From positions 179,752 through 243,751 of the forward strand of contig JAGVGF010000006.1 in NCBI GenBank assembly GCA_020057295.1: a DNA stretch of 64,000 nt. Direction: 5' to 3'. A program made the position numbers and the translations under genes. The notes under the pieces are model-generated. The model saw nothing but the letters and a program-made list of their open reading frames with translations, had not been told where the DNA came from and did not search any database. This DNA comes from an archaeon. GTDB lineage: Archaea > Nanobdellota > Nanobdellia > Woesearchaeales > UBA9642. Shown piece after piece: positions 32,401-46,051 of this stretch. Every line of letters begins with the position of its first letter. Position 1 is the stretch's first letter.

Positions 32401-34398
32401 ACAGCTAATGATAATGGACAGTATGAAGTATGTGATTGTCCAAATGGTATATGTACACAGGAACAAACTAGAGGATTATATTGCGGATCATTTACAGGAC
32501 AAAACTTTACTGGTCAAGGAATATTAAGATGTGCTAATGATTGTACTGCATTCAATAAGGTTGATTGTGATAAAGGTCAAGGATACTGTGGTGATGGTAA
32601 GATTCAAGTCAATAGTAATGGACAACATGAAGCATGTGATGGAACTAAATTTGCTGAAGGTATGAACTGTGCAAAATTAGGATATACTAGCGGAGAATTG
32701 GCATGTTCACATTGTGAATTAAACGCAAGCAGATGTTCTAAAACAGGAGTGACAACTCCTCCTGGCGGTCCTGTATGTAGTAACGCATTATTAGAAGGAG
32801 AAGTTTGTGAAGCTGGATCAGCAAACGTTACGTGTTTATCATTTGGTTATGATTATGGATATAATAATGCATTCGTACCATGTACATCATGCAGATACGA
32901 TTTAGCTGGATGCTACTTCAACTTAACACAAATAGTAACTCCTCCAGGAGGAAATCCTTGTGGTAATGGTAGACTTGAGAGTAGCGAAGATTGTGATGGA
33001 ACATTAGGATTAAATACCGTCTCATGTAAATCTATATTAGCTAATAATTATAGCATAGGTAATGTAAGTTGTAAGAGTACATGTAAATATGATACAAGTA
33101 AATGTGTCGATAGTAGAAATGGCTTGAGCAAATGTGTAAATGGTGTTAAAGATATTACTGAAGCAGATGTAGATTGTGGTGGAGATTGTGCAGGATGTTC
33201 CTTTAATAAAACTTGCTTTGGAAATAGTGATTGTGCAAGTAATAAATGTGTAAGTAGTAAGTGTGCAATTAATACATGTAACAACAGTAAATTTGATTCA
33301 GCATATGAAACAGATGTAGATTGTGGCGGAACATGTAAGCCATGTGATAATACTAAGAGTTGTACAGTAACAAGTGATTGTGTATCAGGATATTGTATTA
33401 GTAATAAATGTGATGTGAATCCTTGTGCTAATGGAATATTAGATGAGGGAGAAGTAGATATTGATTGTGGTGGAAGTTGTACATTATGTAATGTCGGACA
33501 AAAATGTGCTAGTAGTTCTGAATGTAGCACTGATAGTTGTGTTAACAATGTATGTACAGAAAAAGCTGAGCTTCCAAATACTAATCTTGAAGAATTAAAA
33601 TTGATACTATTAATATTTGGAATAGTACTAACTTTAGGTGGTACAGGATATATTGTATATAGATCGTTCTTTGGACAAAATATTAGCAACGGTAAAAAAC
33701 CTCCACAAAGCGGAATTCCACCAATAGCTAATATTAAAACTCCTAAACAATCTTTAGAAGAACAAAGAGGTATACAGAAACAAAAAGAAGCAATGTCTAA
33801 ACGTCAAGAGATGCGTGATTCTCAACGTAAGACAATAATACAAAATTTAGAAACAACAGCTAGACCTAAAAAAACAGAAGAAGAATTACATAAGCTTGAA
33901 GAAAAACCAACATTAAAGAAAGAAGAGAAGAATGAAGAAGAATATGTTGATTTATCAAATATTGATAATAAAAAATCTACAAAGAACGATAAAGTTAGCT
34001 CAAAAGAAAATTCAACATTTGGAAAATTAAAAGATATAACAAATAAAGACTCTGGAACTAAGAAAGGCAGTGAAGCATCAACATTTGATAAATTGAAAAA
34101 TATAAGTAAAAGTGATGAGATAGTTCAAAAGATTGCTCAAATGTCTGGAAGTTCTAAAGAAGATATAAAACCTGCATTAAATAACAAATTAACAGGAGAA
34201 GATGCACTAAAATTATTTGGAAACTTAAATAAAGAAAAAATTACTTCAGATGTATTCAGAGAGATATTATCTCACTTGATTGAAGGCGGTAAGATTACTA
34301 AAGAGAATGTTTCTAGCATATTATTCGAATACATGGATCGTGGAGTATTAACTAAGGGCGAAGTTGCTAAAATCTCTTCTGAATTAAAGATAATATAA
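17485..34398 (+). CDS. Giant (5637 aa) membrane-anchored surface protein / adhesin
   Basis: Sec-type signal peptide, carboxypeptidase-regulatory-like sandwiches, about six 500-600 aa supermodules marked by CV(K/R)xxD, CGDG and DVDCGG Cys repeats, TM LILLIFGIVLTLGGTGYIVY near 33600, charged cytoplasmic tail. Confidence 0.92.
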   Translation: MNLRVLKYFIVFILLLSTFILVNSSNVNATCNVWFNGCYKDANACTVGSASYNQYKCRPFVDVDAPICTLGNDPKCMPGCCCPTSASAELTLSGLCNVTRGTFNSGSYTLTQCQNFCSSVVAGSKYNITGTVTIVGTGLVSGAHITLNPSAKNNNTISGGTYSLYNVDPGTYTVTAEYSGCNNNTQVVIVNSNVVSDITIKCDYYSVSGNVNYTSGGISGAEVKSSVGNIISGTNGAYTLSNILKNTAFDITANKTIGVNCFGTIHINPVQSNLVGQNITLVCNTYTFNGTIKKRDNSPLSDATVSSRGGLTTGNAAGFYNFNSVTPGSITVTAVKNGIAVSGGIMSCSGELSFSLDNNYINKDFIVTCCTDKTYKSPCIDGQIETTVETTCDDGRPLTNTKSYAPCSVPTACEWNLTWTGCAANAETESAVPGTPAKIIANGCDPNIITPQPELVRACPTQCGDGNLNVSRILNGFVVPETCDYNYKSGIYNVSDSCFAAWQAADISNPKKINFKSDLTTDATCYIGNCTCKTPPPKIIPTCVDNPGNLSDLNISHIAMQHAFNVSWNITNQSCANYVSNFSLRICNNATGACMDVLNNYVPVNNSISNNSRAYLHNASDNKPIPIVELTEYCYELTVTFNDSIVDPAKRKSSMIKCIKAGDEKCMSIHTDSWCTSNKKTSCYANNTINIVPTICSATEFCTNVNGNAECVYQPECNLCNGIFGILSYSELRIPSLRSDANLGKLIWCPSLVHPNPNPSQDWFDSSNLYGCYLDYSMSTTVDQSYDCDKVLSCYNYLSKDSCENDYCNKFNQTGANGCGWQPYNGDKSLTPNIFGKGVCRPKNESEQQCGLCNDNNPLKVNRIFSNCTKDICGLYGNCFFNTNGNNCMNARDVTCPTYTLQDDCIGTSRKNVSTVVDWNLVDGLLRKVSGTNVRINSSDAVGLGVCYWDGSCKRNTDNKTDIVDCKPIALGGKLTICTKDYIAPVTKITNRTAYGLLMDLNGEIEIQDNNAWPIGDSSIDTSYINIGPSKTTWMYYCVSAYGVGPCYPDNTMNFTDSQQKYKVNLTNFGLSNANNSQLFTMYYFSEDPAKNLELIKSFTFKLDTEGPNVNVNIGLDPYKLSRNQWLTNITVDLQVVNNELSPPVECKFTMHPPETIDRVISFNGKEQYNIPRRDNPSDVKIYNIATDRLHTAYPELVNGAYTWELDCFDAAKNPTHKTGSIQIDGDLRINNPIPKTKTFTTRSLATGTVHTYPVNISVNTTGPGLCKYNDTTPSLPFNSASMISMINGSFNDTLKTQQHNATINIPLNEPYINGTGLYYYYIACNVSINSEYNVITGDDSDNPAFAIDDAAPETKLMDAGRIPIKEYNSSIPAKDGSVEDVLRLILSCDDNNTLLRTLSNASMAFGCNNTARYYCIYNSSNDCTNTATYTQFTSDIVLNYNIRDGPDKKMYGNNPRIFFYSKDLGGNVEDIKYVQLKLKNNVLENPNVTLYNPYDISKDIMNITARGIDINQALIAIKVNYSDETNVSIASLSKYYEVHKIDSDNAYVPLREDTPLNNTGEFLFFRQYWPNGKYNLTINATDEDGNNNINTTIFYVEAPENFVQLQSPVLGIGTTRFYNINVSTLYDSTCKYSTSVYPAYINLSDWYIQLDYKLFNITNVSENLYHNIANYDGDASGTLYVICKTIDSLDESNKSYVMTSFPVGYLTTNPVVKNITFIGQPTFDPFNSTIINASYNATIIKVITDQDTVCRINGTSTILNVYNMMLNGSGVLENISDYNSYSTTHTLLINYSGRLGSTISGVFNYTINCTNHAQRTIANDTKIYLDLNYPAPSLTYSVNNSYITRKSINVTFNDPYITNYTYSIITNIADPCTYLTSKAFGTILDVKETSKVCVKGVDVLGRADTKTIPITIRNFDSGNVTVISPRYLKDKYILGQTATFDLVIDTDVNATCKYTKAADFLEGGTNPLDTLSFDYIYNDARAKLMNTTNSTSNITGYNIGFGENVFEDLIIICKAANVDPTSSPNISRAFSVAWDNTSSSININAPQLIDDMNNRIAVFDITTDDNTMCYFNGTLFNGDKDNILYNDSTKYVSYKQTHRHTTYYTNPEHYVGNDILYTYNITCINTAGLSGKNNTNIRFKPAINISVTRNSPTLYLTNTSLLVSANTSIQANCSLYVNNTFSRWMAPTSNNKTHNILIDLKDNEYNLNVSCFVNSNISIRGSTNYTVIVDTRPSRVELSANSIMCNLSFFNASLNIISAYGIKNYTYVVYNGLNNEINRTKITSSMGRTYNTLLNYTTPTNVNGEAYSLEVSAIFNDGSTDSKTVSVTTYDPATDSHCDYVNPGLTITNKTINANMAEVNISCTDANSGCKGYSYDIIPVGWDCATRAVYGSLQTFTNNNASIILTNGQTGRLCVKVYDNSVNNNYNTTDVTINTRVAICSNGELDRIDPAIIANYNLAIGSTNDYNEVCDGSNLRINSCINVPHSPAYTAGTLTCNLGICSTYNESQCRQGMPITLTTPLYFGIANKSIYNLTITTPSNSTCRLVTTQLPDPLPEGVTIIDIYNEAADKNLTNRTNYKENYITINATELNDTSLFNEYARIICNNTEPNANETGQAYNEIPLTLGYYANGPTLNITGPSIIRDFNSRIITLTVDTNHPSICYIEGPLTGGAYAKANIPPGKALNKYYDYDYTRLRTLNYMAVVNPLDYDKFRYNISCTDRANLTTVKEYNITYNISQDINITFNMANYSLNSNVEIAVNTSVIANCTIFIDGFNNGTFGANGLIHSKYFTLGSKNNHEIGVQCNIPNTVIYSEIKYHNITVDLQNPTVNISTINTTTCNLESFDVKVNGSDDTTLISYNYTVTSTGISYTSGSINIPDTITFNNEGNGLTDGQVYNIDVYTIDQFGKNSDHKQLAITAHSPNNSITCDSREPTITIGTATIINNTFATVEINCTDSKDVANGISASGCQSKYKYATVPKGDCSGLTESDYKEAEFSNTDEYSSTRKLILYGDVAKLCVRGMDRSGKYAYANKTISLNAIGCGDGIIQIKPTLSDLGYVSSYDNWNQAYYDSITYEYCDTNGATGATNLSGQSCQSLGEGVGGTLSCPHTGANKCNFDTSNCVKGINVILISPLPFGLGQYNNYNLSVGTNNYTSVCKIGELTYPGDTIGSFNYNTMNVMNQSVVNSSINNYTITMNGGEYYYAHKYIICNASISGYTGPVLGTFGILDVYTGYEGTLPNISLGLDRTKLFDWNDRTAYVYINTTDTNGIDENTVCYINDSGILYNTYLIPNGNVTDYSTYSSKKAVYVDFGSRYTNPAYKMFTYNVTCINRAQKNTSKTINLEYNIVDYININKTFPSSQYIGSATTDLDIKTNILARCTVNDGTLKSMDSTLSTTHTTNVNIGNGWKNVTVICTSPFASSRTLINTTEFRFRGSTVGPNDVAINVTYNSCSLNDVNITFNSTDVTGTGIDNYNYSISSGVKDWTIVNTVGGNTHINIKPSVSLVSGSEYTVQATAVDKAGFVSSVTSTTFRALNNTVWQCDNTNPSMTITLQPVTSIYRKDVEIKCTDNYCTTSFDYALIDQSGSCNSATYITKSYDTINTDYSTGKLTIDNTSKVCVKGRDLKGNLGTYELVVTVTDRTSGIIRIIYPTFLEGQYITSNTSVTNVVIDTGVTANCRLTEATGTLPASNNAVYAGSKDFNVTGSTLKIHNITNFTFTNANTLYDWLFICNRTDVLNAPESEAYIMDVYSLMYDATKPTIDSVSSTSVTDRWDKNTELTIITNEPTICYRDGVIINNLNTSKYNDYNTKHIEKISYISLGETSQTFNYNIICMNRAKLNSTSSGISVLYDLNDTLGLVKTAPASSSDDIYLASNSVELQVRTNLLAVCTANNGSVTNVMELQQPSTDQYYYYNIQLSSLSNITNVNVTCVRSGSIDESHKYILHSNVVGPQQPTVSVSPNVCSLTNVALTFNVTDATGVGIREYNYTILNSTLGTAKGWSTITSNTDTATLSLTPDQTYTVQFIATDNAGFKSSLGVGTFIPRAGTTWYCDNTYPGINVRIVSNSIFYKDVNVSCNDNYCNTTFKWDFISQSGTCSGTSTYDKTGYYNQLLSFNNNSGRLCVKGYDYIGHNTYNETSVDIISRNAGVMNITNPTFLETQYIIARSNVTDINLTTDISSDCKYIAGNSSTNDTIAYSGATPFTTTGGTTNHSISGFRIYSQPNEFEDYYFICKRNDIVASESEAYAVKKDYRITYDGTNPVINNYSATDVTDNLNKKTNIRLTTNEPTICYYNNGSLMNNDNIKLYSSYTKDHETIIDYTLTLDNNPHQLNYTLYCMNFVGLNSTKVNISIRYEFTNVLNLTKVRPDGVNNPVYLSINNTELQVKVNMDSSCKYVLNGGAQTNIAFSATTGSEYYYTTTLNNLANSNTISVTCTRSGSLPVSAVYNVYANNAGPTNMNVSANTITTCGQPNVTVTFSATNTGAGIKGFNYTIRDETAGTFISNAFTNSTTVTIDTSVWIAGHVYKIESRAVDNADVSSSSDWIAITSTTSSATVCDNTNPSLTITDQQTSFLDVMDVRISCTDTISGCTSRFNYSLLDANTNNCTGATYDNTELYTNNLTITDRGRLCVKGYDRNNNSGYNTEIVNIMSKNNTVNVTTDTPIPPVNSIYPNTLTTTSRLINVTLTSTLGATCRYGLTPNNNNGLANMYTNYIPFNTSGDTTHIIREFDTQEKYEQLVDVICYNQSLSATPYSRLTLRIVYISSTSTPLIQFTAQPSIVYDWNNRKAKLIITTNQETVCTLTSANDNKNNLPTDIGNYSNALTYQLNHEKDLDYTGYDISIRTFTYSVTCKNLVQLSSSNTTAILYNVSKNISIELISPLNYNSSTVDLMINTSLIANCNLLLDGTDKGALSKDNTGLFHNIVLTGLVNGTYNTEFRCIVPILGVTVSKNYSITVNTSRPRTYCGDGLTQFMTANDNGQYEVCDCPNGICTQEQTRGLYCGSFTGQNFTGQGILRCANDCTAFNKVDCDKGQGYCGDGKIQVNSNGQHEACDGTKFAEGMNCAKLGYTSGELACSHCELNASRCSKTGVTTPPGGPVCSNALLEGEVCEAGSANVTCLSFGYDYGYNNAFVPCTSCRYDLAGCYFNLTQIVTPPGGNPCGNGRLESSEDCDGTLGLNTVSCKSILANNYSIGNVSCKSTCKYDTSKCVDSRNGLSKCVNGVKDITEADVDCGGDCAGCSFNKTCFGNSDCASNKCVSSKCAINTCNNSKFDSAYETDVDCGGTCKPCDNTKSCTVTSDCVSGYCISNKCDVNPCANGILDEGEVDIDCGGSCTLCNVGQKCASSSECSTDSCVNNVCTEKAELPNTNLEELKLILLIFGIVLTLGGTGYIVYRSFFGQNISNGKKPPQSGIPPIANIKTPKQSLEEQRGIQKQKEAMSKRQEMRDSQRKTIIQNLETTARPKKTEEELHKLEEKPTLKKEEKNEEEYVDLSNIDNKKSTKNDKVSSKENSTFGKLKDITNKDSGTKKGSEASTFDKLKNISKSDEIVQKIAQMSGSSKEDIKPALNNKLTGEDALKLFGNLNKEKITSDVFREILSHLIEGGKITKENVSSILFEYMDRGVLTKGEVAKISSELKII

Positions 34399-34411: not shown

Positions 34412-34924
34412 ATGAGAAAAGGTCAAGTCGCAGGACAGATATTCATATATATTATGGCAGTTATAGTAGTTGGTGGTATAGCCTTAATAGGATATTCTGC
34501 AATCAAAGGCATAGTTAGTAAGAGTTGTGATGCTGAAAAATTAACATTTAAGTCAGACATGGAATCATTAATAGAAAAATATACATCTTATGGTTCTGTA
34601 AATAATAAAGTAATTACTGCACCATGTGATTATGACACAGTATGTTTTGTGGATAGCAGTAAGATGGGAACAGATCTTACTTTATGTACTACAAATAATA
34701 TTATCAAGGATAGTATACGTGTTGGTAGTTCTGATGGTAGTAGTAAAAATATTTTTGTAATATCTGGAGGAAAAACTATAGGTATAGGATATAGTTCACT
34801 TATTAGCCTACCACTTGCTCAACAAAATAATTGTACATGTATTAAACAACGTAATAAAAATTTTTATATAACATTTAATGGCAAAGGATCTAGTGCGGAA
34901 ATAAGTCCATACACTCCGGGTTAA
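34412..34924 (+). CDS. Prepilin-like protein (class III signal peptide)
   Basis: MRKG|QVAGQIFIYIMAVIVVGGIALIGY. Confidence 0.85.
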   Translation: MRKGQVAGQIFIYIMAVIVVGGIALIGYSAIKGIVSKSCDAEKLTFKSDMESLIEKYTSYGSVNNKVITAPCDYDTVCFVDSSKMGTDLTLCTTNNIIKDSIRVGSSDGSSKNIFVISGGKTIGIGYSSLISLPLAQQNNCTCIKQRNKNFYITFNGKGSSAEISPYTPG

Positions 34925-34925
34925 G

Positions 34926-35963
34926 ATGAAAAATGCTTCTAAAATTAATAAACTCAACAAGAAAGGTGTTGTGGATGTACAATTTAACTGGATATTTATT
35001 ATGATTACAGGATTTGTAATACTTTTATTCATTGTTAGTATTGTTTTAAGTCAAAAGAAAAATTCTGATACACAAGCAGCCTATTCTTCTATGAATCAGA
35101 TTGTTACAATACTTAAAGGCAAACAGCAAGCGGGAAACGTATATTCTGAAGTAAGCCTTCCAAAAACCAGTATGAGTTTTAGATGTGATCCGGTAACTAA
35201 TTATTTTACATTTAAAATTGAAGATTCTGAAAGAATACAAATGCCTTTAGAAATAATATTTGGTCCTAGAGATGTTGTTAGTAGTAAGGTACAATTTTGG
35301 AGTCAATCATTTGATGTACCGTTTCCTGTAACTATATTCACATATATGACTACAGCAAATAGTATTATAATGATTTATAACAATACAGACAGTTCTAATG
35401 CACAAAAATTATTTGATGATTTACCATCTAATGTTACAAAAAAGATAACAACAGATTTTAACGTCATAAAAGATTATACTAAATATAAAATTGTATGTAT
35501 CGAAGGTAGTTGTCCAACATCATCTATATCTAGAGAATACATTAAAATCAGTCCTGCTGCAGGATTGTATAGTTATGGTAATGTGACATTTTATACTAAA
35601 ACTAACACCGTACAGGGAACTGTTCCATACATTTCCAAAGCTTCGCTTCTTGGAGCATTATTTAGCGATAATGCAGAGTATTATACGTGTCAAATGAATC
35701 GTGCAATGATTCAATATGAAGTTAAAAGATCATTAGTTGAAAAAAGATTAGAGTTATTATACGATGACTTAAACCCGGGACAATGCAAAGTAAGTATTGA
35801 TGTAGCATTAAATGAATTAGTAATTCCTATGAGAAATAGCGTTTTAAGTTGGCCTAGTATCACAAATATTTATTCAAAATCATATGGTATAGATGCGGGA
35901 TCTACAAGTCTTACCGTAAGTAATATGGATTTAACATTGGGTAGCTGTCCAAAAATATATTAA
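34926..35963 (+). CDS. Prepilin-like protein (class III signal peptide)
   Basis: NKKG|VVDVQFNWIFIMITGFVILLF. Confidence 0.85.
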   Translation: MKNASKINKLNKKGVVDVQFNWIFIMITGFVILLFIVSIVLSQKKNSDTQAAYSSMNQIVTILKGKQQAGNVYSEVSLPKTSMSFRCDPVTNYFTFKIEDSERIQMPLEIIFGPRDVVSSKVQFWSQSFDVPFPVTIFTYMTTANSIIMIYNNTDSSNAQKLFDDLPSNVTKKITTDFNVIKDYTKYKIVCIEGSCPTSSISREYIKISPAAGLYSYGNVTFYTKTNTVQGTVPYISKASLLGALFSDNAEYYTCQMNRAMIQYEVKRSLVEKRLELLYDDLNPGQCKVSIDVALNELVIPMRNSVLSWPSITNIYSKSYGIDAGSTSLTVSNMDLTLGSCPKIY

Positions 35964-36011
35964 AGATATAATAAAGATAAAACAAAATCTGAAAAGTAAT
36001 CTGGAAAAAAT

Positions 36012-36509
36012 ATGTTGATAAAACGTAAAAACGGACAAGTACAACTTGGAGAAAGTACGGCAGTGATCGTTGTAGTTATTATAATCCTGTTTTTCGGAAT
36101 AATATTCTGGAACAAAATTAATAGTTCAGATATACAAAAGATAAATACTGAATCTCAGGAATTATCTGTTATAGAAATTGCGAATATAGTTTCTGAACTT
36201 CCAGAGCTAAAATGTTATGAAGTTAATGTTAACAAGATAAAATGTTTAGATTGGTATAAAGTATTAGCGATGAATGCCACAGTAAATAGTAACGGACCTA
36301 ATTATGAATTCTACAATAACTATTTCAAAAATTCAAAAATCACAATAAGGCAAATATATCCGACCAGCGTTAATATTACAATATACGATTCAAAACTTAG
36401 CAATAACACTAAAACATTGCTTATACCCATTCCCGTAAACATTAAAGATTACGTACATAAAACAACAGGATATGGTCTAATAATTGTAGAAGGATATTAC
36501 AAAGGCTGA
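36012..36509 (+). CDS. Prepilin-like protein (class III signal peptide)
   Basis: KRKNG|QVQLGESTAVIVVVIIILFFG. Confidence 0.85.
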   Translation: MLIKRKNGQVQLGESTAVIVVVIIILFFGIIFWNKINSSDIQKINTESQELSVIEIANIVSELPELKCYEVNVNKIKCLDWYKVLAMNATVNSNGPNYEFYNNYFKNSKITIRQIYPTSVNITIYDSKLSNNTKTLLIPIPVNIKDYVHKTTGYGLIIVEGYYKG

Positions 36510-36510
36510 A

Positions 36511-37029
36511 ATGAACATCAGACACAATAAAAAGATTAAGGGACAAATAGAAATATTTGGCTTAGCGGTGATTGTTATACTTATATCAATAGGATTTTTT
36601 ATATTTGTATCGCTTAAAGCGCAACATCCAACAGAAAATCCTCAAAAAGAGTATACTAATGACAAGCTTGCTAACGATTTTGTATTATCAATATTAGATG
36701 TTAATGTAAAAGATTGTGATACCTTTACTCTTAAAGATTTAATCGTAGATTGCGGCAGAGATAGAAAGATAGATTGTGGAGGAACATCTTCATGTTTCGC
36801 TGCTAATAAAACAATTACAGACTTGCTTAATGGAACTTTTATGGTCATGAATACTAAATTTAGATTCTATTCTGAAAATCTTAAAGATAACGCTGGTAGA
36901 GAAATCATTAATATAACACATCTTAATTGTACATCTAATATGCGTCAAGGACAAAGGGGTACAGCAATAATATCTTTATACCCTTGGCCCAACAATGTTT
37001 ATTTAAATATGAATATCTGCTATCAATAG
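36511..37029 (+). CDS. Prepilin-like protein (class III signal peptide)
   Basis: KKIKG|QIEIFGLAVIVILISIGFF. Confidence 0.85.
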   Translation: MNIRHNKKIKGQIEIFGLAVIVILISIGFFIFVSLKAQHPTENPQKEYTNDKLANDFVLSILDVNVKDCDTFTLKDLIVDCGRDRKIDCGGTSSCFAANKTITDLLNGTFMVMNTKFRFYSENLKDNAGREIINITHLNCTSNMRQGQRGTAIISLYPWPNNVYLNMNICYQ

Positions 37030-37195: not shown

Positions 37196-37777
37196 ATGAT
37201 GAATCTACCAGATAAGGATCCAAAAAGCCAAAGATTAGCATTATTACTAAAGATAATGGTATTCGTACTATTACTTATAGGAGTATTACTGCTTACAGGA
37301 TATTTGAAGAAGATAATGTTATTTGTCAATCCAGACATTGAAAACTGTAAAGGCGGTAGTTGTAGAGATTCATGTATTAAGGATCAAGAAATAATGAATA
37401 ATAATGCTGCATGCAGCGATACAAGCAAAGTCTGCTGTGTAATTAATGATAGAACTCCGAGTGCTGAATGTGTAGGATACACTAAAGGGTATGTCTGCGG
37501 TAGACTGATGATATGTGATGCTGACTTAGTTTGTGTGAGTAGATGTGATTATTGTGCACAAAATCCTGATGATAAAGCATGTGTTATAGATGCAGAAGTA
37601 GTAACCATCGGTGCTAGCGTAACTAAATTTGATGATAAATTCACGTGTGGTTGTACAGAAATGGACTGTAACAGTTTTGATAATAGTAAACTTGGAACAT
37701 GTGTTAAAGGATTCTGTCCTTCAGATGTGCCTGTAGCAACTAACTATATGTGTTGCGTAAATCCTTATAAGAAATAA
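37196..37777 (+). CDS. Membrane-anchored Cys-rich protein with defensin-like motif; paralog of 40987-41604
   Basis: N-terminal TM; C-x4-C-x3-C-x12-C-x6-CC; C(D/E)YCAQNP and FxCGC shared with 40987. Confidence 0.82.
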   Translation: MMNLPDKDPKSQRLALLLKIMVFVLLLIGVLLLTGYLKKIMLFVNPDIENCKGGSCRDSCIKDQEIMNNNAACSDTSKVCCVINDRTPSAECVGYTKGYVCGRLMICDADLVCVSRCDYCAQNPDDKACVIDAEVVTIGASVTKFDDKFTCGCTEMDCNSFDNSKLGTCVKGFCPSDVPVATNYMCCVNPYKK

Positions 37778-37800
37778 AAATATCAGAATAAAATAAAAAT

Positions 37801-38619
37801 ATGTTAAAAAAAAATACTCGTGGAATGTTTAGTCAACTATTAGTTATTGTATTGATATTAAGTGCAGCTATACTTATAATGTTAGTAGTTATGAAATTTT
37901 TATATTCTAATAACGCCAAAGGTGCTATTGATACATGCAGATTTAGTGTAGTTGCACAAAGCGCTACAGCACTTAAAGTAGATTCAAGCGGATTGACAAG
38001 TCCTATAGCAATTAATTGTGAGAAACGATACGTTAATTTATTCAATAATAAGGTGGAAATAGGAAATAATCCTGAAGATACAGATACTGCTCAAATAGTA
38101 TATAATAATAAGCCCGTAAAGAAATTTTTAGAATTAAACGACTTTATTGTTAATCAAATTGTCGCTGAAGAAATGAGAATATGCTGGTATCAATTTGGCC
38201 AAGGAAGAGTTAAAGTCTTTGCAAATGATAAAAACGTACTTGAAAATAGCAATGTTTGTTTCATATGTTCTGAGATAAGTTTTAAAGATAATATGGGTAA
38301 ATCAGAATTTGTAGGATTAGCAGATTATCTTAATCAAACATATATTGCTAATGAGAAAATGACTTATTACCAATACTTAAATGATGCTTCAATGTCTGCC
38401 GAAACTTTTGAACAGTATAATAAAGATGCAAAAAGTTCTGGAAAGACAAATATTTATGATATTAAATTATATAAGGATAAAACTTATTATATTATCTTTA
38501 AGAAAGGAGACTGGACCTTTAGGAGTAGTTATAGATTTTATCCTATAATTATTTCTTCAGATGAAATTAATGGTTATGATGCATATGATCACTCTTTATG
38601 CGATATGCAGGCAACATGA
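37801..38619 (+). CDS. Prepilin-like protein; paralog of 38616-39530
   Basis: NTRG|MFSQLLVIVLIL; CRxS, IVAEEMRICWYQFGQG, CFIC. Confidence 0.85.
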   Translation: MLKKNTRGMFSQLLVIVLILSAAILIMLVVMKFLYSNNAKGAIDTCRFSVVAQSATALKVDSSGLTSPIAINCEKRYVNLFNNKVEIGNNPEDTDTAQIVYNNKPVKKFLELNDFIVNQIVAEEMRICWYQFGQGRVKVFANDKNVLENSNVCFICSEISFKDNMGKSEFVGLADYLNQTYIANEKMTYYQYLNDASMSAETFEQYNKDAKSSGKTNIYDIKLYKDKTYYIIFKKGDWTFRSSYRFYPIIISSDEINGYDAYDHSLCDMQAT

Positions 38620-39530
38620 AATCTAAAGGCATAGCATTTAATAATTTATTATTGATACTTTTAGCTATGGCTGCTCTAATATTATTTAGTCTGTTCTTAT
38701 ACAATAAATATGCTGATACAAGAGATATGCTTGCTGTACAGAATTGTAGAAATAGTATTGCAGCACATTCAGTAGTTGCTAAGGGAACATTTAGTCAGAT
38801 TTTTACAGATGTAAAATGTCCTACAAGAGATATAACTTTAGGCAAAAGTCAATTAAAAGATTCTAAAAGAATTATTGCTGAAGATATGCATCGATGCTGG
38901 TATGAGTGGGGTCAGGGCAAAGAACAATTGTTCCAAGGTGATGGAATGTTTTGTCACATCTGTGCCACATACACTTTTGATGAAAAAGGACAAAAAATTG
39001 ATGGATTTATACACTATCTTGCTAGTACACCAATGTATGTCAAATATCCTGGTGATACTCTAGGAATAAAATATTTAGATTATATGAATCCATATCATAC
39101 AGAAAATGCTGAACAAATGATTCAGAAAAGCGATCAGGTTATTACACCGTACGATTATATTAACACTTCAGCACAATACACTACTGTAATAGTCTATGCT
39201 TCAGGAAAAGAACAAATACAGAAATTTCTTGAAGGCGGAACAAGAGCGACTGTCGGCACTATAGGAGGTCTAGCATTAATTGCCGGTTCTGCCGGATCAG
39301 CATATATTGTTGGTAGTCTATTATTACTTAGCAATCCTGGAGGATGGGTAGTATTAGGAACAGTCGCATTATTAACTCTAGGCTATGAAGCAGTAGGCCT
39401 AGCGACTAATGTTAAAAATCCTGAATGGGTTTCATTTATGGTTTTTAGACCATACAATGTCGATGAATTATCAAATCTTGGATGTCAAAAGCTTGAAGCT
39501 AACCAAGTATCACACGCACCAAATAAATAA
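38616..39530 (+). CDS. Prepilin-like protein with internal Gly-rich hydrophobic segment
   Basis: MKSKG|IAFNNLLLILL (ATGA overlap with the upstream stop); IAEDMHRCWYEWGQG, CHIC; GTIGGLALIAG...SNPGGWVVLG. Confidence 0.85.
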   Translation: MKSKGIAFNNLLLILLAMAALILFSLFLYNKYADTRDMLAVQNCRNSIAAHSVVAKGTFSQIFTDVKCPTRDITLGKSQLKDSKRIIAEDMHRCWYEWGQGKEQLFQGDGMFCHICATYTFDEKGQKIDGFIHYLASTPMYVKYPGDTLGIKYLDYMNPYHTENAEQMIQKSDQVITPYDYINTSAQYTTVIVYASGKEQIQKFLEGGTRATVGTIGGLALIAGSAGSAYIVGSLLLLSNPGGWVVLGTVALLTLGYEAVGLATNVKNPEWVSFMVFRPYNVDELSNLGCQKLEANQVSHAPNK

Positions 39531-39627
39531 GATATAATAATAACATCGTAAATATCAATGTTATAAATAATAATAAAAATATATAATGGAAATATTTATA
39601 TTCAATAAGTACTAGGAAATGATTAAA

Positions 39628-39774
39628 ATGATAAAGTTTCATAAGAAGGGAGAAGCAGGAGAGGGTGCTGGATTCGGATTAGGAAATTTTGCGCAAATAG
39701 CACTTCTCGTAGGAATATTTTTAATAATATTAATTATATCGATAGTAATATACAATAAGATAAGCACTCCTTAG
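39628..39774 (+). CDS. 48-aa minimal (Flp-sized) prepilin-like protein (absent from ORF track)
   Basis: MIKFHKKG|EAGEGAGFGLGNFAQIALLVGIFLIILIISIVIYNKISTP; TATA-like TTTATATT at 39595-39602. Confidence 0.75.
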   Translation: MIKFHKKGEAGEGAGFGLGNFAQIALLVGIFLIILIISIVIYNKISTP

Positions 39775-39809
39775 ATTTTAATCGAACTATAAATTTTAAT
39801 GTGATTATT

Positions 39810-40391
39810 ATGAACAAAAAAGGTATAACAGCAATACTCCTTGTGGTTATAGGATTACTTATTTTATTACTAATAATGGTTGGATGGGGTAAATCATTAT
39901 ATGAAGGTATTGTGTCTTGGAGTAATACTTATGAGAAGCCTAAGTTAAATTATGATAATGCGTTCTTATTTAATGCACAGTACGTTAGTATTAATGAAAG
40001 TGCAGATTTTAAAGCTAAATGTTCTGGTGGAACAAATAATCAGTATATATGTACAAAACCTGTAAAAGTATTATTTTATGTGAACATAAAAAATATCGGT
40101 TCTAAGATGCGTGTATTATATCCTAACCCCATAATCGATTCCTGTAAAGGAAGTAATTGTCAAGAATATGTAAGAGTTGGTGGAAGCAGGTCTTGTGCTG
40201 TAACTCCAGGAACAGATATACTATGCGAGGCTGGAGAAAATGAGTTTAATACGGCAGGAACATATAGAATTTATCCTGCAGTATTTTGTAAAATTGACGA
40301 TCCAATCAATGGATGTCAAAAGACAGGGATAAGCAGTCCAATATACTCTTATAATAAGGATAGCTGGATAGAAATCACTATTCAGCCTTAA
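39810..40391 (+). CDS. Prepilin-like protein with Ig-like domain
   Basis: MNKKG|ITAILLVVIGLLILLL; VNIKNIG...YRIYP...WIEITI domain related to 41610 and to the C-terminus of 42368. Confidence 0.82.
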   Translation: MNKKGITAILLVVIGLLILLLIMVGWGKSLYEGIVSWSNTYEKPKLNYDNAFLFNAQYVSINESADFKAKCSGGTNNQYICTKPVKVLFYVNIKNIGSKMRVLYPNPIIDSCKGSNCQEYVRVGGSRSCAVTPGTDILCEAGENEFNTAGTYRIYPAVFCKIDDPINGCQKTGISSPIYSYNKDSWIEITIQP

Positions 40392-40476
40392 TATTGAATA
40401 AAATCATCAAAAAATTTATAAAGAACATATAACAAGATAGAGTATAAATGATTATTTTTATCGCGAGGTGCGTCAT

Positions 40477-40716
40477 ATGAAAAAGCAAGGTGTCGAGTTA
40501 AGTATGAATGTTATTATAATTGCAGCTATAGGATTATTAGTTTTAGTCATATTAGCAGTACTAGTTATAAATTCTGGAGGTAGATTCCAGGGCGGTACAC
40601 AATCATGTTCTGTAAAGGGCGGAGTATGTTCAGCTACATGTTCAAATGGCGAGCTTAGCGGCGGAACATGTGAAGGTAGCAACAGATGTTGTAAGATATT
40701 TACACTGAGTCCTTAA
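40477..40716 (+). CDS. Small pilin-like protein with beta-defensin-like domain (candidate major subunit)
   Basis: MKKQG|VELSMNVIIIAAIGLLVLVIL; C-x6-C-x3-C-x9-C-x5-CC; own TTTATAAA (40415-40422), SD gaggtg, downstream T-tract. Confidence 0.85.
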   Translation: MKKQGVELSMNVIIIAAIGLLVLVILAVLVINSGGRFQGGTQSCSVKGGVCSATCSNGELSGGTCEGSNRCCKIFTLSP

Positions 40717-40734
40717 TTTTTATTTTTTCTTTCT
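40717..40734 (+). terminator. Oligo-T archaeal terminator-like tract
   Basis: T-rich run immediately after the stop of 40477-40716. Confidence 0.4.
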
Positions 40735-40759
40735 ATAAAATTTTAAAGGTTTAAAAAAA

Positions 40760-41011
40760 ATGTTTAAGTCCAACGGTAAAGGTGTCGAGCTAGCGTTTAA
40801 CACAATAATTCTTATCGTTATCGGACTACTTGTTCTATTCGTTATAGGATTTTTTATAATGCGTGGAGGAATGACATTCAATTCTGGAACATCATGTGAA
40901 GGCAATGGCGGAACATGTATACCATTTACTAGCACATGTGGTGAAGATAAACAATTAGCAGCTTGGAGTTGCGGAAGTAGTCAAAGATGTTGCGTTACAA
41001 AAACAATATAA
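40760..41011 (+). CDS. Small pilin-like protein with beta-defensin-like domain; paralog of 40477
   Basis: GKG|VELAFNTIILIVIGLLVLFVI; C-x6-C-x6-C-x10-C-x5-CC. Confidence 0.85.
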   Translation: MFKSNGKGVELAFNTIILIVIGLLVLFVIGFFIMRGGMTFNSGTSCEGNGGTCIPFTSTCGEDKQLAAWSCGSSQRCCVTKTI

Positions 41012-41604
41012 AAAAGAAGGGAATGAGTGATATGGTTCTTGGACTAATTATTAGTCTAGCAGCCATAATACTTCTAGTTATTGTTATAACAAATATATCA
41101 AAGAGTGCTAATAAAAATGTACAATGCGGTGGGTTAATTAGCGGAACATGTGAAAAAACATGTTCTACTGGGAAATTACCAACATTAGATATAGGAGATG
41201 CTTGTGCTAACAGAAAAGACGGGTTAACTACTTGCTGTGCTGGTTTAGATGTTTCTAAGAGTACAACCAGTAATGATAATACTGGTAATGAATTATGTCA
41301 AACTAGAGCAGTTGGTGCTGATTGTAGTACACAACAATATTTTTACAAAGTGTGTAATGCTACAAAACAGTGCGTATACAAGTGTGAATATTGTGCACAA
41401 AATCCTGGTGTAAGTGGATGTGCTGGATTTAAAAGTAATAATGATAAGCTTGTAACATTCAATAGTCAATTTAGTTGTGGATGTAGCAAAGATCAATGCA
41501 CAGAGAAATCTAAGACTGGTAAGTGCTTAATTAATACAGTACCTCAAGGATTCTTTTGCTCTCCAAACTTGTATTGCTGCGAGGTTCCAAATCCTTCAGG
41601 ATAA
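40987..41604 (+). CDS. Prepilin-like Cys-rich protein with defensin-like motif
   Basis: KKKG|MSDMVLGLIISLAAIILL; C-x7-C-x3-C-x13-C-x9-CC; CEYCAQNP. Confidence 0.82.
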   Translation: MLRYKNNIKKKGMSDMVLGLIISLAAIILLVIVITNISKSANKNVQCGGLISGTCEKTCSTGKLPTLDIGDACANRKDGLTTCCAGLDVSKSTTSNDNTGNELCQTRAVGADCSTQQYFYKVCNATKQCVYKCEYCAQNPGVSGCAGFKSNNDKLVTFNSQFSCGCSKDQCTEKSKTGKCLINTVPQGFFCSPNLYCCEVPNPSG

Positions 41605-41609
41605 ATTTT

Positions 41610-42362
41610 ATGAAAAAATATAATAATCGTGGAGAAGTGAATTGGGTTTTGGTACTAATAGTTGGTCTTATAGCTGTATTAATAATTGTTTTAATAATTA
41701 GATCATGGGGTAAGAGTGCGGATAATAATTTCAAGACATTATCTAACTGCGGATCATTAACGGGCGGAATGGGATTCTGTAGAGTTGAATGTAAGGAGGG
41801 CGAATTAAAGTATCAAAACTTTGGCGGATGTCCTCCTAAAGATGATTCTGGAGCAACATTCTGCTGTATCAATCCTGATAAGAGTGTAAGTTCTGTTCTA
41901 CCAGAAGAATTTGGAGGCAGTGATACGTATAATTTTAAGATAAAATATATTGGATTCCTATATAATGCAAGTGAAGCTATGCCTACAAATTGTCATTTGA
42001 TTTCTGGAAGTACTGTTAAGATGCAATGCACAAAAGGAATAGGAATAACTTTACCCATACAGATAAATATACAGAATGTTGGTACACAACCGTTAGATGT
42101 ATACGGTCTTCCAATGGTCACAATTAATGATAATTACAATACTATGACTACTCCTGCTAACGGTAATACTTTAACAAAATTAGCAGTAGGAGGGGCTGAA
42201 AGTAGTGTAGCTAAAATTGTTATTGAACCTTCTAAGGCTAACGGGTTTTATAGAATTTATGGATATGCAAAATGTGAAACCCAAGAATGTAAAAATACCA
42301 ATCCTAAAGGAGTATTAAGAAAATATGATGATAATGCATATATCGAAGTCACATTCACATAA
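41610..42362 (+). CDS. Prepilin-like protein with defensin-like motif and Ig-like domain
   Basis: MKKYNNRG|EVNWVLVLIVGLIAV; C-x9-C-x3-C-x12-C-x10-CC; start set to ATG 41610. Confidence 0.82.
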   Translation: MKKYNNRGEVNWVLVLIVGLIAVLIIVLIIRSWGKSADNNFKTLSNCGSLTGGMGFCRVECKEGELKYQNFGGCPPKDDSGATFCCINPDKSVSSVLPEEFGGSDTYNFKIKYIGFLYNASEAMPTNCHLISGSTVKMQCTKGIGITLPIQINIQNVGTQPLDVYGLPMVTINDNYNTMTTPANGNTLTKLAVGGAESSVAKIVIEPSKANGFYRIYGYAKCETQECKNTNPKGVLRKYDDNAYIEVTFT

Positions 42363-42367
42363 ATCTT

Positions 42368-43933
42368 ATGGTTTCATTAAATAATTCTAGGAAAGGGAAC
42401 TTAGTATTACAATTTGTAGTTTTATTGATAATAACTTTAATAATGATTTTTGTGATTTCAGCTTTTGGAGTAAAGATATTTGAAGGATTCTTCCCAAGTA
42501 CTGATTCTTCAACAACTAAAAGTTTCACAGCACTATATACAGCTATGAATACTAAATCGTTAAGCACTAAAAATTATGATTCGGTAAAATTAGGAACATA
42601 TATTGCAAAGGATCACGGAATATATTTCTTTGATAACAGTGCAACAGGATGTATAAGAGGGATAGTTAAAATATCTAGACCTACAGCATGTGATGGAAAA
42701 GCGAGCTGTTTGTGTTTACTTAAAGGACCTATAGAACATAGCGGAACGCCTGCAGATACTGATAAATATGTTAAAGTATGTAAAGATTTTAATCAAACAT
42801 TCTCGATAAATCAAGATACTTTGAGTTTGTACAATTCTGGATGTGGTACATCTACAACTAATCAGTTCTATAATATTATAATTGCGCATACTGGCGAAAA
42901 AACAATGGTTATAATGGAAAGTAATGAGTCCAGTCGTAAATATGACGATGAAATGAAAAAATTAACATGCCCTACGATAGCGGATAGTGTATCGCCTTCG
43001 TATATATGTTCTGGAAAGAAAGATGGAGAAATACTCACAGGTAAAGAAGTGTTTGATGCATGTAGTGAATACAACAAGACATGGAATGTATTTGTTGCAG
43101 AATGTAAATATGATACTAATAAATATCCTAAACGTTGTGAATTAAATTGTGAAAAGTGGAAATTTGATTGTGAAACAATGATACCAAATTCCGACACTGG
43201 ATGTGACGCATATAATCAAGGAGGCATAGTAAGAGTTAATGATCAAGATTATAAATATCTTCTGGAAGGAAATTTAAACACTGATAAAAGTTATGGTGAA
43301 ACAAGTAACTATTTCGCATGTAATTTAGACTTGGAAGCATGTCAAATCAGTAAAAATGGAAATGGTTGTGAGGCAAAAACGGCCGCAGATATACCTTCTG
43401 TAGGAACAGGACAATCGTATATGAAATGTTATGAGAAAGGGCAATCATTTGACGGTAAAGCTGATGCTAGAAAAGCTGTAAATATTCAGAAAATACAATT
43501 ATCTGGAAATTCTATTAAAGACGGTTCTTGTAAAAAAATTAATTCTAGCGAATCTGTAATTATAACAAAGAAAAATTCTGATGTTTTTACAAACTATAAC
43601 GTTTACAAATGTAAGCCTGGATCTGAAGTATCTTTTGAAACAGTCGTAGAAAATAAAGCAACATATCCTATGAAACTCAGAGCTTTTACTAAACTTGTAC
43701 AACTGGATGATAGTGTTCCTGCAGTGAGAATGCCAGCAAGTTCTTTGGGAGAAGTCACAGATGCAGAGATTGGACAAACTACAATATTACCATCAACTAT
43801 TACTCTAACAGCGGATTTAGGATGGTATTATTCCATTACACCTTCAGTAATAATAGATGGAGAAACAACTCCTATAGATTCTTTATCTAGTACACTAGAC
43901 ACTAGATTTTATATAGAGATTAATGACAAGTAG
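42368..43933 (+). CDS. Prepilin-like protein, Cys-rich, with C-terminal Ig-like domain
   Basis: SRKG|NLVLQFVVLLIITLIMIF; CLC motif; ends FYIEIND. Confidence 0.82.
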   Translation: MVSLNNSRKGNLVLQFVVLLIITLIMIFVISAFGVKIFEGFFPSTDSSTTKSFTALYTAMNTKSLSTKNYDSVKLGTYIAKDHGIYFFDNSATGCIRGIVKISRPTACDGKASCLCLLKGPIEHSGTPADTDKYVKVCKDFNQTFSINQDTLSLYNSGCGTSTTNQFYNIIIAHTGEKTMVIMESNESSRKYDDEMKKLTCPTIADSVSPSYICSGKKDGEILTGKEVFDACSEYNKTWNVFVAECKYDTNKYPKRCELNCEKWKFDCETMIPNSDTGCDAYNQGGIVRVNDQDYKYLLEGNLNTDKSYGETSNYFACNLDLEACQISKNGNGCEAKTAADIPSVGTGQSYMKCYEKGQSFDGKADARKAVNIQKIQLSGNSIKDGSCKKINSSESVIITKKNSDVFTNYNVYKCKPGSEVSFETVVENKATYPMKLRAFTKLVQLDDSVPAVRMPASSLGEVTDAEIGQTTILPSTITLTADLGWYYSITPSVIIDGETTPIDSLSSTLDTRFYIEINDK

Positions 43934-43987
43934 CATCCACTATTAAAATCGATACCTATTTAAACTTTCATTCTATATTTATAGTGT

Positions 43988-44902
43988 ATGTTTAGACGTC
44001 TGGGAAAGAAGGGTGATGAGAGTAAATTAATGTTTCTCATGTGGGAAGTTATTGTGTTAGCAATAGTTGTTATTGCATTGATTGTGGCGGTGAGAAGTGT
44101 TGCTAATAATAGTAGTTTCTGGAAGAAGTATTATTCTTATGACCTTGCAATGATTACTGAATTGGAGCATACTAATCAGGGCGATTTTATTATTAATTAC
44201 AAACTTAAAGAATATACAGGCATAGCTAAAAGTTTAGGTTTAGTTAGTGATCAATCATATGATATTTCTTTACTTAAAGGTGTTGTGGAAGTTTATCAAA
44301 GTCCCAAAGATGATGACAAGTTCCCGACTAAATTCTTATACGGCATATCAAAAGATATTAATGTTATTGAAAGCACGATAGTATCTAACTTTTTTACTAT
44401 TTCTAAGATAGGTAATGAATTACGTTTTAAAGAATCTTATGGACGTGATAAGGATGTTTGTCCATCCATATCTACTAGTGCTAACATCAGTGAATTAAAG
44501 TTTACAATATTATCTACAAATCCTAAAGTCGATTCTTACTCTACATATCTTGATGGTTTACTAAAGAATTATGGTGTTGGTAGTAATCATAGTGATGAAT
44601 TACTAATAGTTTTCATATATACTAATACCACAAATACTACCATATACTATTCAGACAAACAAATCTCTAAAGCAAGTAAGCTTGGATGTATATTACGTAA
44701 AAATTTGATTGCGACATATTCTGATAAAGATATAACATTATTAAAATACGACGGATTATTAGATGGAGTGCAAGAATTTTCTACAAACAGACAAACAAAT
44801 AATTATTTTATAATTATAGCATTATCCGATACTGATTTTAGTGTAAGTAATACAGACTTTGATAGCATAGTTAAAGAAACTATAAAAAATTATTATAGTT
44901 AA
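43988..44902 (+). CDS. Prepilin-like protein; C-terminus possibly a degenerate Amidase_3-like fold
   Basis: GKKG|DESKLMFLMWEVIVLAIVV; C-terminal TIYYS...ASKLGCILRKNL...IKNYY pattern. Confidence 0.75.
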   Translation: MFRRLGKKGDESKLMFLMWEVIVLAIVVIALIVAVRSVANNSSFWKKYYSYDLAMITELEHTNQGDFIINYKLKEYTGIAKSLGLVSDQSYDISLLKGVVEVYQSPKDDDKFPTKFLYGISKDINVIESTIVSNFFTISKIGNELRFKESYGRDKDVCPSISTSANISELKFTILSTNPKVDSYSTYLDGLLKNYGVGSNHSDELLIVFIYTNTTNTTIYYSDKQISKASKLGCILRKNLIATYSDKDITLLKYDGLLDGVQEFSTNRQTNNYFIIIALSDTDFSVSNTDFDSIVKETIKNYYS

Positions 44903-44917
44903 AAAAATTAATTAAAA

Positions 44918-45454
44918 ATGATTAAAATAAGAAATAGAAATAACCGTGGACAAGTACAATTCTTTTTAGAGAATGTATTTAGATTAGGATTCTTAATGAT
45001 AGCATTATTAGCTTTTTTTCTATTAGTTAATTTTTATGTTGTTAATAAAATAGATACAACACAATTGGAAGCAGAAACTGTTGCTAATAGAATAATATAT
45101 TCTAATATTATAATGCACAACGATATAAATACTGGAAGAGTATATGTAGGAATAGTCGATAAACAGAAAGTTGACGATTCTAGAATTTTTAATCAAATAA
45201 ATTATTTGAATGAGAGGCATGTAGCTGTAAAGATTAAATTACTAAATAACACTCCAAAAAACGATTTTGTTAAGGAAGCGTACATCAATAAAGCACAGTT
45301 TGAACGTTTAAAGGTGATTATTGATGCAAATCTTGGAGGCAGCGGCAAGGGCGGTGCCACGATGTTTATCAAAAAATATCCTGTTACAATAAAAGATTAT
45401 AATACATATTCATACGGGACACTTGTTTTGGAGATAATAGTTCCAAACAGTTAA
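44918..45454 (+). CDS. Prepilin-like protein
   Basis: NNRG|QVQFFLENVFRLGFLMIALLAFFLLV. Confidence 0.82.
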   Translation: MIKIRNRNNRGQVQFFLENVFRLGFLMIALLAFFLLVNFYVVNKIDTTQLEAETVANRIIYSNIIMHNDINTGRVYVGIVDKQKVDDSRIFNQINYLNERHVAVKIKLLNNTPKNDFVKEAYINKAQFERLKVIIDANLGGSGKGGATMFIKKYPVTIKDYNTYSYGTLVLEIIVPNS

Positions 45455-45501
45455 AATTATGATGAAACAAGGATTTAGAAAATAGTTATTAAACAAATAA
45501 A

Positions 45502-46044: not shown

Positions 46045-46051
46045 TTCAAAA

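Follow-up and report, generated by a model that had tools for sequence, protein, structure and literature searches.

Could an archaeon display on its surface a filament whose subunits end in small, disulfide-knotted heads resembling vertebrate beta-defensins? This question is raised by five neighboring genes at positions 37196-42362 of a 64,000-nucleotide stretch of DNA (the window) from a tiny DPANN archaeon of symbiotic type, a member of the Woesearchaeales (assembly GCA_020057295.1, contig JAGVGF010000006.1). The window is the final 64 kb of contig 3 of a six-contig, 1.2-Mb genome with 31% G+C. It carries archaeal marks, namely a SecY with a Sec61 plug, an EMC3/TMCO1-like insertase, RPA-type OB folds and a primase small-subunit match, and no tRNA genes were found within its 64 kb. 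We consider it probable (about 0.6) that the five genes encode subunits of a surface filament whose disulfide-knotted heads contact a host.

The five genes had been singled out by a first-pass annotation for a C..C..C..C..CC array, and all five are indeed present, on the + strand. The tightest array lies in a 79-amino-acid (aa) mini-pilin-like protein (40477-40716, +), in which the N-terminus MKKQG/VELSMNVIIIAAIGLLVLVILAVLVIN (slashes mark the presumed cut) is followed by the six-cysteine head. Its motif, CSVKGGVCSATCSNGELSGGTCEGSNRCC (nt 40606-40692), had been quoted exactly; it reads C-x6-C-x3-C-x9-C-x5-CC and agrees exactly with the beta-defensin spacing, whereas the other four genes in the window are spaced more loosely. 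A 193-aa protein (37196-37777, +; supported by its open reading frame (ORF), a hidden Markov model (HMM) and an AlphaFold2 model), composed of a hydrophobic helix, a six-cysteine domain and a 14-cysteine second domain, has C-x4-C-x3-C-x12-C-x6-CC (nt 37346-37438). The second mini-pilin-like protein, of 83 aa (40760-41011, +; GKG/VELAFNTIILIVIG... and a six-cysteine head), has C-x6-C-x6-C-x10-C-x5-CC (nt 40895-40993). The spacings are x7/x3/x13/x9 (nt 41125-41238) in a 205-aa paralogue of the 193-aa protein (40987-41604, +), which has a KKKG/MSDMV... helix, a six-cysteine domain and a 14-cysteine second domain, and x9/x3/x12/x10 (nt 41748-41867) in a 250-aa protein (41610-42362, +) with an NRG/EVNWVLVLIVGL helix, a six-cysteine domain and a beta-rich C-terminal domain.

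The six-cysteine array is real and clustered in the genome. A loose pattern (C-x4-10-C-x3-6-C-x7-14-C-x4-10-CC), applied to ORFs of at least 50 aa across the 1.2 Mb, matched 6 of 3097, and within-ORF shuffles (n = 200) matched 0.46 on average and 3 at most. As had been proposed, the motif makes up nearly the entire part outside the hydrophobic helix in both small proteins, and because the knob is their whole head, the 79- and 83-aa proteins are candidate main subunits. The near-neutral charge noticed at first sight was also borne out: the five motifs carry net charges of 0, 0, -1, 0 and -1, and the heads of the family, computed over 120 listed homologues, average 0.02 (range -7 to +3).

How are the five genes related to each other? 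We took the domain columns of alignment A1 for a head-only HMM and ran it on the 8247 stop-to-stop frames of the genome. It gave E-values of 7.9e-14 and 1e-7 for the 79- and 83-aa proteins, which had been among its training sequences, 4.9e-7 for a copy on contig 5 and 3.8e-4 for the 193-aa protein. Nothing further in these frames fell below E 0.27, and the 205- and 250-aa proteins were unmatched at E ≤ 10. By BLASTP, the 193- and 205-aa proteins match over their full length (E 1e-12), and the N-terminal ~100 residues of the 250-aa protein (268 aa as listed) match the 205-aa protein with all six cysteines aligned (E 2e-10). Therefore, the knob is a module that always stands directly after the N-terminal helix, alone or with further domains. 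The contig-5 copy (9663-9938, -; 91 aa from its listed start) is a sixth family member outside the gene island that holds the five, and it adjoins a 529-aa secreted-looking protein.

The start of the 250-aa protein is most likely ATG 41610 because the alignment with the 205-aa paralogue begins there; the listed ORF starts at TTG 41556 (268 aa). The 79-aa gene has an alternative GTG start at 40468, which is the start used in the ORF list (82 aa), but ATG 40477 is its likely start: GAGGTG lies six bases 5' of it, and a 79-aa database copy (P0001) also begins at this ATG. Each mini gene is preceded by an A/T-rich, TATA-like stretch of its own, and a T-run follows the stop of the 79-aa gene.

In the 193-aa protein, the helix occupies model residues 9-44, the six-cysteine domain residues 51-81 and the 14-cysteine domain approximately residues 92-187. 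This last domain (37469-37756, and 41290-41590 in the 205-aa gene) has a core C-[EDY]-[YF]-C-x-x-N-P and a terminal CC as invariant columns in alignment A2, and it also occurs within proteins of ~460-900 aa elsewhere in the same genome and genus. The 193-aa protein has 12 homologues. A word-based homologue search with the 205-aa protein found no protein but itself; a six-frame search within the taxonomic family recovered relatives from just two genera, its own and one other, and it was present in all six own-genus genomes searched, at ~30% identity. The C-terminal part of the 250-aa protein is related to a 196-aa protein (39801-40391; BLASTP E 1e-5), and the beta-rich domain common to the two ends in ...YRIY...C...C...I[ET][IV]T.

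The first-pass annotation had gone on to propose a prokaryotic version of the defensin fold. Part of this stood, in that the head resembles only beta-defensins in the libraries searched; the claim belongs, however, at the level of prediction, and every score is weak. With vertebrate beta-defensins (PF00711, PF13841) the heads share the cysteine spacing, a glycine before C2 and C4, and CC followed by a basic residue. The isolated head reached Pfam Defensin_beta with 21.2 bits (E 2.8e-4; cut-off 21), the whole 82-aa protein fell under this cut-off (19.4 bits, E 0.0011), and the 83-aa protein matched Inhibitor_I68, the tick carboxypeptidase inhibitor, with 22.6 bits (E 1.5e-4), under the cut-off of 25. 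Among 92 family members, matches at E ≤ 0.1 were to Defensin_beta (14), Defensin_beta_2 (8), Defensin_big (6), Inhibitor_I68 (4), AtDEF-like (12) and YxzE (13). Larger numbers of the 92 matched DUF948, DUF6458 and HemY_N via the hydrophobic helix, and we set these three aside as composition matches.

Comparison of the single head with PDB sequences gave six rows at E ≤ 10. The top three were beta-defensins (E 0.14-0.68) with the six cysteines in register, two of them aligned without gaps and one with a single one-residue gap. Mouse beta-defensin 8, which aligns without gaps, shares with the head GG-x-C before C2, G-T-C at C4 and CC-K, and plant-type (cis) entries accounted for just two rows, at E 1.7 and 2. 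The family profile gave 42 rows at E ≤ 10, 31 of them defensins or defensin-fold proteins, the best being beta-defensin 106 at E 0.0028. The remaining rows comprised one "chimeric peptide" and ten unrelated entries, nine of the ten matching on helix positions.

An AlphaFold2 model of the head, based on 92 aligned sequences, contained short strands and had a predicted local distance difference test score (pLDDT) of 76.6, with 85-87 in the core. In a Foldseek search of this model against the PDB, a check that had been suggested at the outset, all 21 matches at E ≤ 10 were defensin-type, with a best E of 1.8 and template modeling scores of 0.38-0.58. Similarly, with the VIA aligner, which is independent of Foldseek, all 12 chains with Z ≥ 2 among 48,161 were defensin-type, the best at Z 4.0 with a root-mean-square deviation of 2.2 Å over 38 residues. 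For the model of the whole 193-aa protein (17 sequences; pLDDT 78.3), the first 20 Foldseek rows were defensins, and the VIA aligner matched residues 44-86 to CpoBD13 (Z 3.5), HBD4 (3.3), AvBD11 (3.1), HBD2 and others; its other rows matched the long helix. The 14-cysteine domain (approximately residues 90-190 of this model) had no listed structural match, the list being filled by the helix and the first domain. The sequence and structure matches are thus consistent and specific, yet each is weak, and the head is predicted to fold as a three-stranded, beta-defensin-type knob.

Profile or fold matches also reached Inhibitor_I68, helianthamide, crotamine and platypus defensin-like peptides, all animal secreted proteins, which we take to share the beta-defensin fold. 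The matches do not imply a function in common with the archaeal heads; these proteins show the fold serving binding and inhibition besides killing.

How widespread is the family? Of 200 candidates retrieved with the 82-aa query, 175 were homologous at E ≤ 0.01. Among the 120 of these that are listed, on which the cysteine counts rest, 91 have the strict motif, 14 space their six cysteines more loosely, three have eight cysteines and 12 have four. C1-x6-C2 and the terminal CC are present in all 91 strict-motif members, in which 45 different spacings occur. A profile search of 1.84 billion cluster representatives returned 3107 at E ≤ 1e-3 and 854 at E ≤ 1e-10; of the new cluster representatives, 127 of 131 have six cysteines, every one ending in CC. 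A six-frame search of the phylum found a family match, often in tandem, in 325 of 401 sampled genomes (319 of 395 without six unpublished ones: G242, G243, G321, G332, G359 and G395) and in 232 of 281 genera, although this profile includes the helix, which by itself may account for the weaker matches in other orders. In its own genus, all ten genomes, the present one (G000) included, have a match.

A pattern scan of one genome for each of 185,579 species gave 60 loci. Save for a few, these are titled Woesearchaeota, Nanoarchaeota, Nanoarchaeia, Nanobdellota/Nanobdellati, Pacearchaeota or a generic "archaeon", and the source names of the homologues include Woesearchaeota, Nanoarchaeota and Nanobdellota. 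Several loci are titled "uncultured Methanosarcinales" and one "Alphaproteobacteria", which we take to be doubtful automatic mislabels. These doubtful labels aside, the family appears to be confined to records labeled as DPANN lineages.

This is a very large family without a name, in which a nearly invariant pilin-type helix is joined to a fast-evolving head of ~45 residues. Alignment A3 shows 7 invariant and 11 nearly invariant positions in the helix, and the N-terminal part KKG-VELSMNVIIIAAIGLLVLVILAVLVIN hardly varies, whereas the head keeps only its six cysteines and one glycine, which stands before C2. Over 45 pairs from ten own-genus genomes, the nonsynonymous difference was 0.113 for the helix against 0.458 for the head, and synonymous sites were saturated in both parts (0.79 and 0.73); these are uncorrected proportions and give a rough measure. 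A fast head on a frozen helix, the tandem paralogues and the larger paralogues that add domains all fit an exposed recognition surface on a filament.

Do the cysteines form disulfide bridges, and in what order? In the four-cysteine variants (12/12 plus 2/2), C3 is absent and C-[YW] stands where relatives show CC. The lost partner of C3 is C6, because the flanking x-[KP]-L-G holds the register in most of them. The joint loss of C3 and C6 in 14/14 variants, which may derive from only two or three events, therefore fits a 3-6 bridge and misfits the alpha-defensin C3-C5 pairing. The 3-6 bridge expected from the beta-defensin comparison thus gains indirect support from natural variants, and it is a further feature that the heads, together with their predicted three-stranded fold, would share with vertebrate beta-defensins. 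The genome also encodes two VKOR homologues (79.7 bits and a weaker copy) and one DsbA-like Thioredoxin_4 protein (107.5 bits), which makes extracytoplasmic disulfide formation plausible. The cysteines could instead bind zinc or an iron-sulfur center and form no disulfides, for which their richness alone would speak. We regard this as extremely improbable, since the domain lies outside the membrane helix of an organism with VKOR and DsbA-like genes, the cysteines are lost as a pair with an aromatic residue in place, and no histidine or aspartate ligand is conserved.

Are the heads then true relatives of animal trans-defensins, through common descent or an ancient transfer? The identity beyond the cysteines in the mouse beta-defensin 8 alignment, the Defensin_beta score at the cut-off and the return of nothing but defensin-fold proteins by two fold searches with the isolated head all point this way. 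On the other hand, the E-values are marginal for a 30-residue cysteine-rich module, the spacing varies widely (45 spacings among 91 motif-bearers), the family is seemingly restricted to DPANN-labeled records, and the archaeal and animal proteins differ in charge, context and biogenesis. The archaeal heads lack cationic character, their scores are at or below the family thresholds, and they are fused to a pilin-type helix, whereas beta-defensins are free peptides released from a Sec precursor. In addition, trans-defensins are stated in PMC7203481 to have arisen exclusively in animals. Common descent is, therefore, improbable in our view, and the likeness is most likely due to convergence: stable mini-folds with three disulfides are few, and the heads would have arrived at one of them.

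The bacterial defensins reported in PMC11561630, including its five classes, are all cis-defensins (CS-alpha-beta), a separate superfamily; actifensin and its like are prokaryotic, disulfide-rich and named defensins but differ in superfamily from the archaeal heads. From these comparisons with rival explanations and known systems, we set aside both the metal-binding and the cis-defensin readings.

What, then, places these heads on a filament? In the 79-aa protein and its relatives, we read a pilin-type start resembling a class III signal: a short basic leader, G, A or S at -1 and then at least ~20 hydrophobic residues. The candidate processing sites are KKQG/VELSMNVIIIAAIGLLVLVILAVLVI, GKG/VELAFN..., KKKG/MSDMV... 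and NRG/EVNWV..., and the hydrophobic stretch after the leader measures 25-30 residues. Some members have KKAQG-LSMNVIII where the 79-aa protein has KKG-VELSMNVIII, which places G/A at -1. Moreover, the genes belong to a conserved island in which ~15 pilin-like genes are bracketed by a giant surface protein and a peptidoglycan amidase protein; the island neighbors at 36012 and 36511 read KNGQV(Q) and KGQI(E), and NRGQV also occurs among them. Assembly genes are present in the genome: one Peptidase_A24 match (53.3 bits; contig 3, 75740-76090), four T2SSE ATPase matches and four T2SSF matches in two loci.

A comparison is offered by the Epd pili of Methanococcus maripaludis, which, according to PMC4371748, consist of the EppA-processed pilins EpdA-E, with EpdE as the major pilin and sites KGQV, KGQI and KGQL. 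Like the island, the Epd system has several pilin-like genes with K-G-Q-[VIL] type sites, and it has major and minor pilins (PMC4371748, Table 1). The six-cysteine proteins, in contrast, read K-G-V-E rather than K-G-Q and would carry a three-disulfide knot as the head. EpdE is itself a short pilin.

The island order is giant protein, p170-p345-p165-p172, p272-p310, a 51-aa gene, the six-cysteine genes, p304-p178-p180 and the amidase protein, and it is kept in five of six genomes of the order picked for their long contigs. Large proteins with weak similarity to the giant ORF stand at the same island end in relatives, and counterparts of the amidase protein at the other end were found as weak BLASTP matches in four of the six. 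In the own genus (six loci, five genomes), the order is a 196-aa-like gene, two mini genes, a 190-aa two-domain gene and a gene for 230-260 aa; the mini genes are thus flanked by the same gene pair, the counterparts of 39801-40391 and 41610-42362.

Several observations weigh against the filament. The two ATPase/platform loci lie at 43.5-46.3 kb of contig 3 and 98-101 kb of contig 5, away from the island (contig 3, 197-230 kb). Pilin_N (PF07790) has no match in the genome, and the four sub-threshold matches to Class_IIIsignal (PF04021) are all at other loci. An NCBIfam scan of 17 island proteins at E ≤ 1 gave spurious hits only; neither the Pfam nor the NCBIfam scan of the proteins gave a pilin match, and the transmembrane hits were spurious. 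The 193-aa clade is without a clear K/R-G/A site, and E at +2 after the presumed cut is not known as a pattern of characterized archaeal pilins (compare Table 1 of PMC4371748). In one of the six picked relatives, the mini genes are in an unrelated neighborhood, beside ribosomal protein genes. With regard to the heads, all the defensin similarity scores are weak, and cysteine spacing alone could draw AlphaFold2 models to the defensin fold. A four-copy prediction (residues 9-82, alignment A3) scored 0.01 against a mark of 0.42 and is evidence neither way. The PF04021 matches at 247787-248350 of contig 2 and 107519-108008 of contig 5 mark other pilin-like genes; the contig-5 pair is ~7 kb from the ATPase/platform locus there.

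The lack of pilin HMM matches, the distance of the assembly genes and the 193-aa clade without a clear cleavage motif would all suit non-polymerizing surface proteins, held in the membrane by an uncleaved signal-anchor and displaying the knob singly, for example, as a ligand or cell coat. A mere anchor, however, need not stay nearly invariant across thousands of members while the head changes four times faster. In addition, the family members align with K-K-[GA] at -1, and the genes sit in conserved order among ~15 with G/A-Q pilin-type sites. Consequently, we consider single display unlikely, and the pilin and filament reading likely; its pilin part is suggested by the N-terminal pattern, the neighborhood and the distant assembly genes.

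How might such a filament work? The short basic leader ending in G (KKQG/VELS...) would presumably be cut by the single A24 prepilin peptidase, leaving the hydrophobic helix to form the core of a type-IV-like filament. One of the two distant loci with ATPase and platform genes would assemble this filament. Outside the helix, the VKOR and DsbA-like pair would introduce three disulfides that hold together a knob of ~30-40 residues; the fold of this knob is predicted to have three short antiparallel strands, with bridges C3-C6 and probably C1-C5 and C2-C4. The 193-, 205- and 250-aa proteins, which have the same knob after the helix plus further domains, may be minor or tip subunits fitting the same lattice. 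Signal cleavage, polymerization, the full disulfide map and the adhesive role are what we infer from these patterns.

Could the heads kill rather than bind? As defensin-like effectors, they would be released or inserted into the envelope of a neighbor to kill or permeabilize it, alongside the amidase of the island. The family profile does match the big defensins of horseshoe crab, bivalves and amphioxus (2rng at E 0.062, with the alignment reaching the hydrophobic part, 6qbk at E 0.11, and 8bgk), Defensin_big was matched by the 6/92 members mentioned above, and an Amidase_2 protein closes the island. However, the mean head charge of 0.02 over the 120 listed homologues is unlike that of cationic defensins. 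The big-defensin N-domain is a soluble, globular beta1-alpha1-alpha2-beta2 domain and the C-domain is cationic, as described in PMC7203481, whereas the archaeal N-part is one long membrane-type helix (residues 9-44 of the 193-aa model). Their many copies, their paralogues in tandem and the rapid evolution of the heads better fit structural or adhesive subunits. We therefore hold an effector role to be very improbable and, because the heads are not cationic, defensin-like membrane attack unlikely. The likely job of the proposed filament is specific contact, whether adhesion or recognition of a host envelope, because its heads are uncharged and fast-evolving.

The remaining island genes bear on the nature of the partner. 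The island opens with a giant ORF of 5637 aa (17485-34398, +), which has weak BLASTP matches to the large proteins at the same island end in relatives, and closes with a 1338-aa protein (46034-50050, +) containing an N-acetylmuramoyl-L-alanine amidase domain (Pfam Amidase_2, E 8.7e-24). The giant protein and the amidase protein may indicate that a peptidoglycan-bearing cell is contacted and perhaps attacked, and the amidase, as a peptidoglycan hydrolase encoded by an archaeon, suggests a bacterial partner as its target. Between them lie, besides the six-cysteine genes, four conserved pilin-like genes of 170, 345, 165 and 172 aa (34412-37029, +), whose N-termini are short and basic and whose sites are of the G/A-Q type, four genes with an N-terminal helix, of 272, 310, 51 and 196 aa (37801-40391, +), and the 3' pilin-like genes of 521, 304, 178 and 180 aa (42368-46044, +). 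The 51-aa ORF (39619-39774, +) encodes a single hydrophobic helix, and a gene for 50-52 aa is found at or near the same island position in four of the picked relatives.

Elsewhere in the window, a 599-aa protein (1891-3690, -) has CarboxypepD_reg-like domains and a Por_Secre_tail match (30.6 bits, cut-off 27). In bacteria, Por_Secre_tail serves the type IX secretion system as a C-terminal sorting domain, and it is unexpected in an archaeon. A second very large ORF, of 2093 aa, lies at 3779-10060 (-).

In the openly accessible literature on defensins, on pilins and pili, and on DPANN archaea and Woesearchaeota, as far as its available parts go and with subscription journals outside its scope, no description of this family was found. 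What is new here, within that scope, is a type-IV-pilin-like protein with a head type unreported in prokaryotes. A prokaryotic copy of the trans-defensin fold, be it convergent or related, is relevant to the question of how small the number of stable three-disulfide mini-folds is, and the fold would be seen here in a structural or adhesive role without cationic charge. A broader reading goes further: a nearly universal Woesearchaeota-type filament of ~75-residue subunits, each with a beta-defensin-type knot, acting together with the amidase as a polyvalent binder of a conserved molecule in the host envelope (lipid II-like precursors, lipopolysaccharide or peptidoglycan), and a true ancient relative of the trans-defensins besides. 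We give this reading little probability; if the ancient kinship were true, the origin of the fold would move out of animals. The heads are tiny and disulfide mapping is routine, so that the central claims can be checked cheaply.

DPANN archaea are thought to live attached to other cells, and the subunits of their surface fibers are largely unassigned. The protein family described here is small-sized and abundant, occurs in about four-fifths of the sampled genomes of the phylum and is encoded in a conserved island with a giant surface protein and a cell-wall amidase; therefore, it is a concrete candidate for the attachment apparatus.

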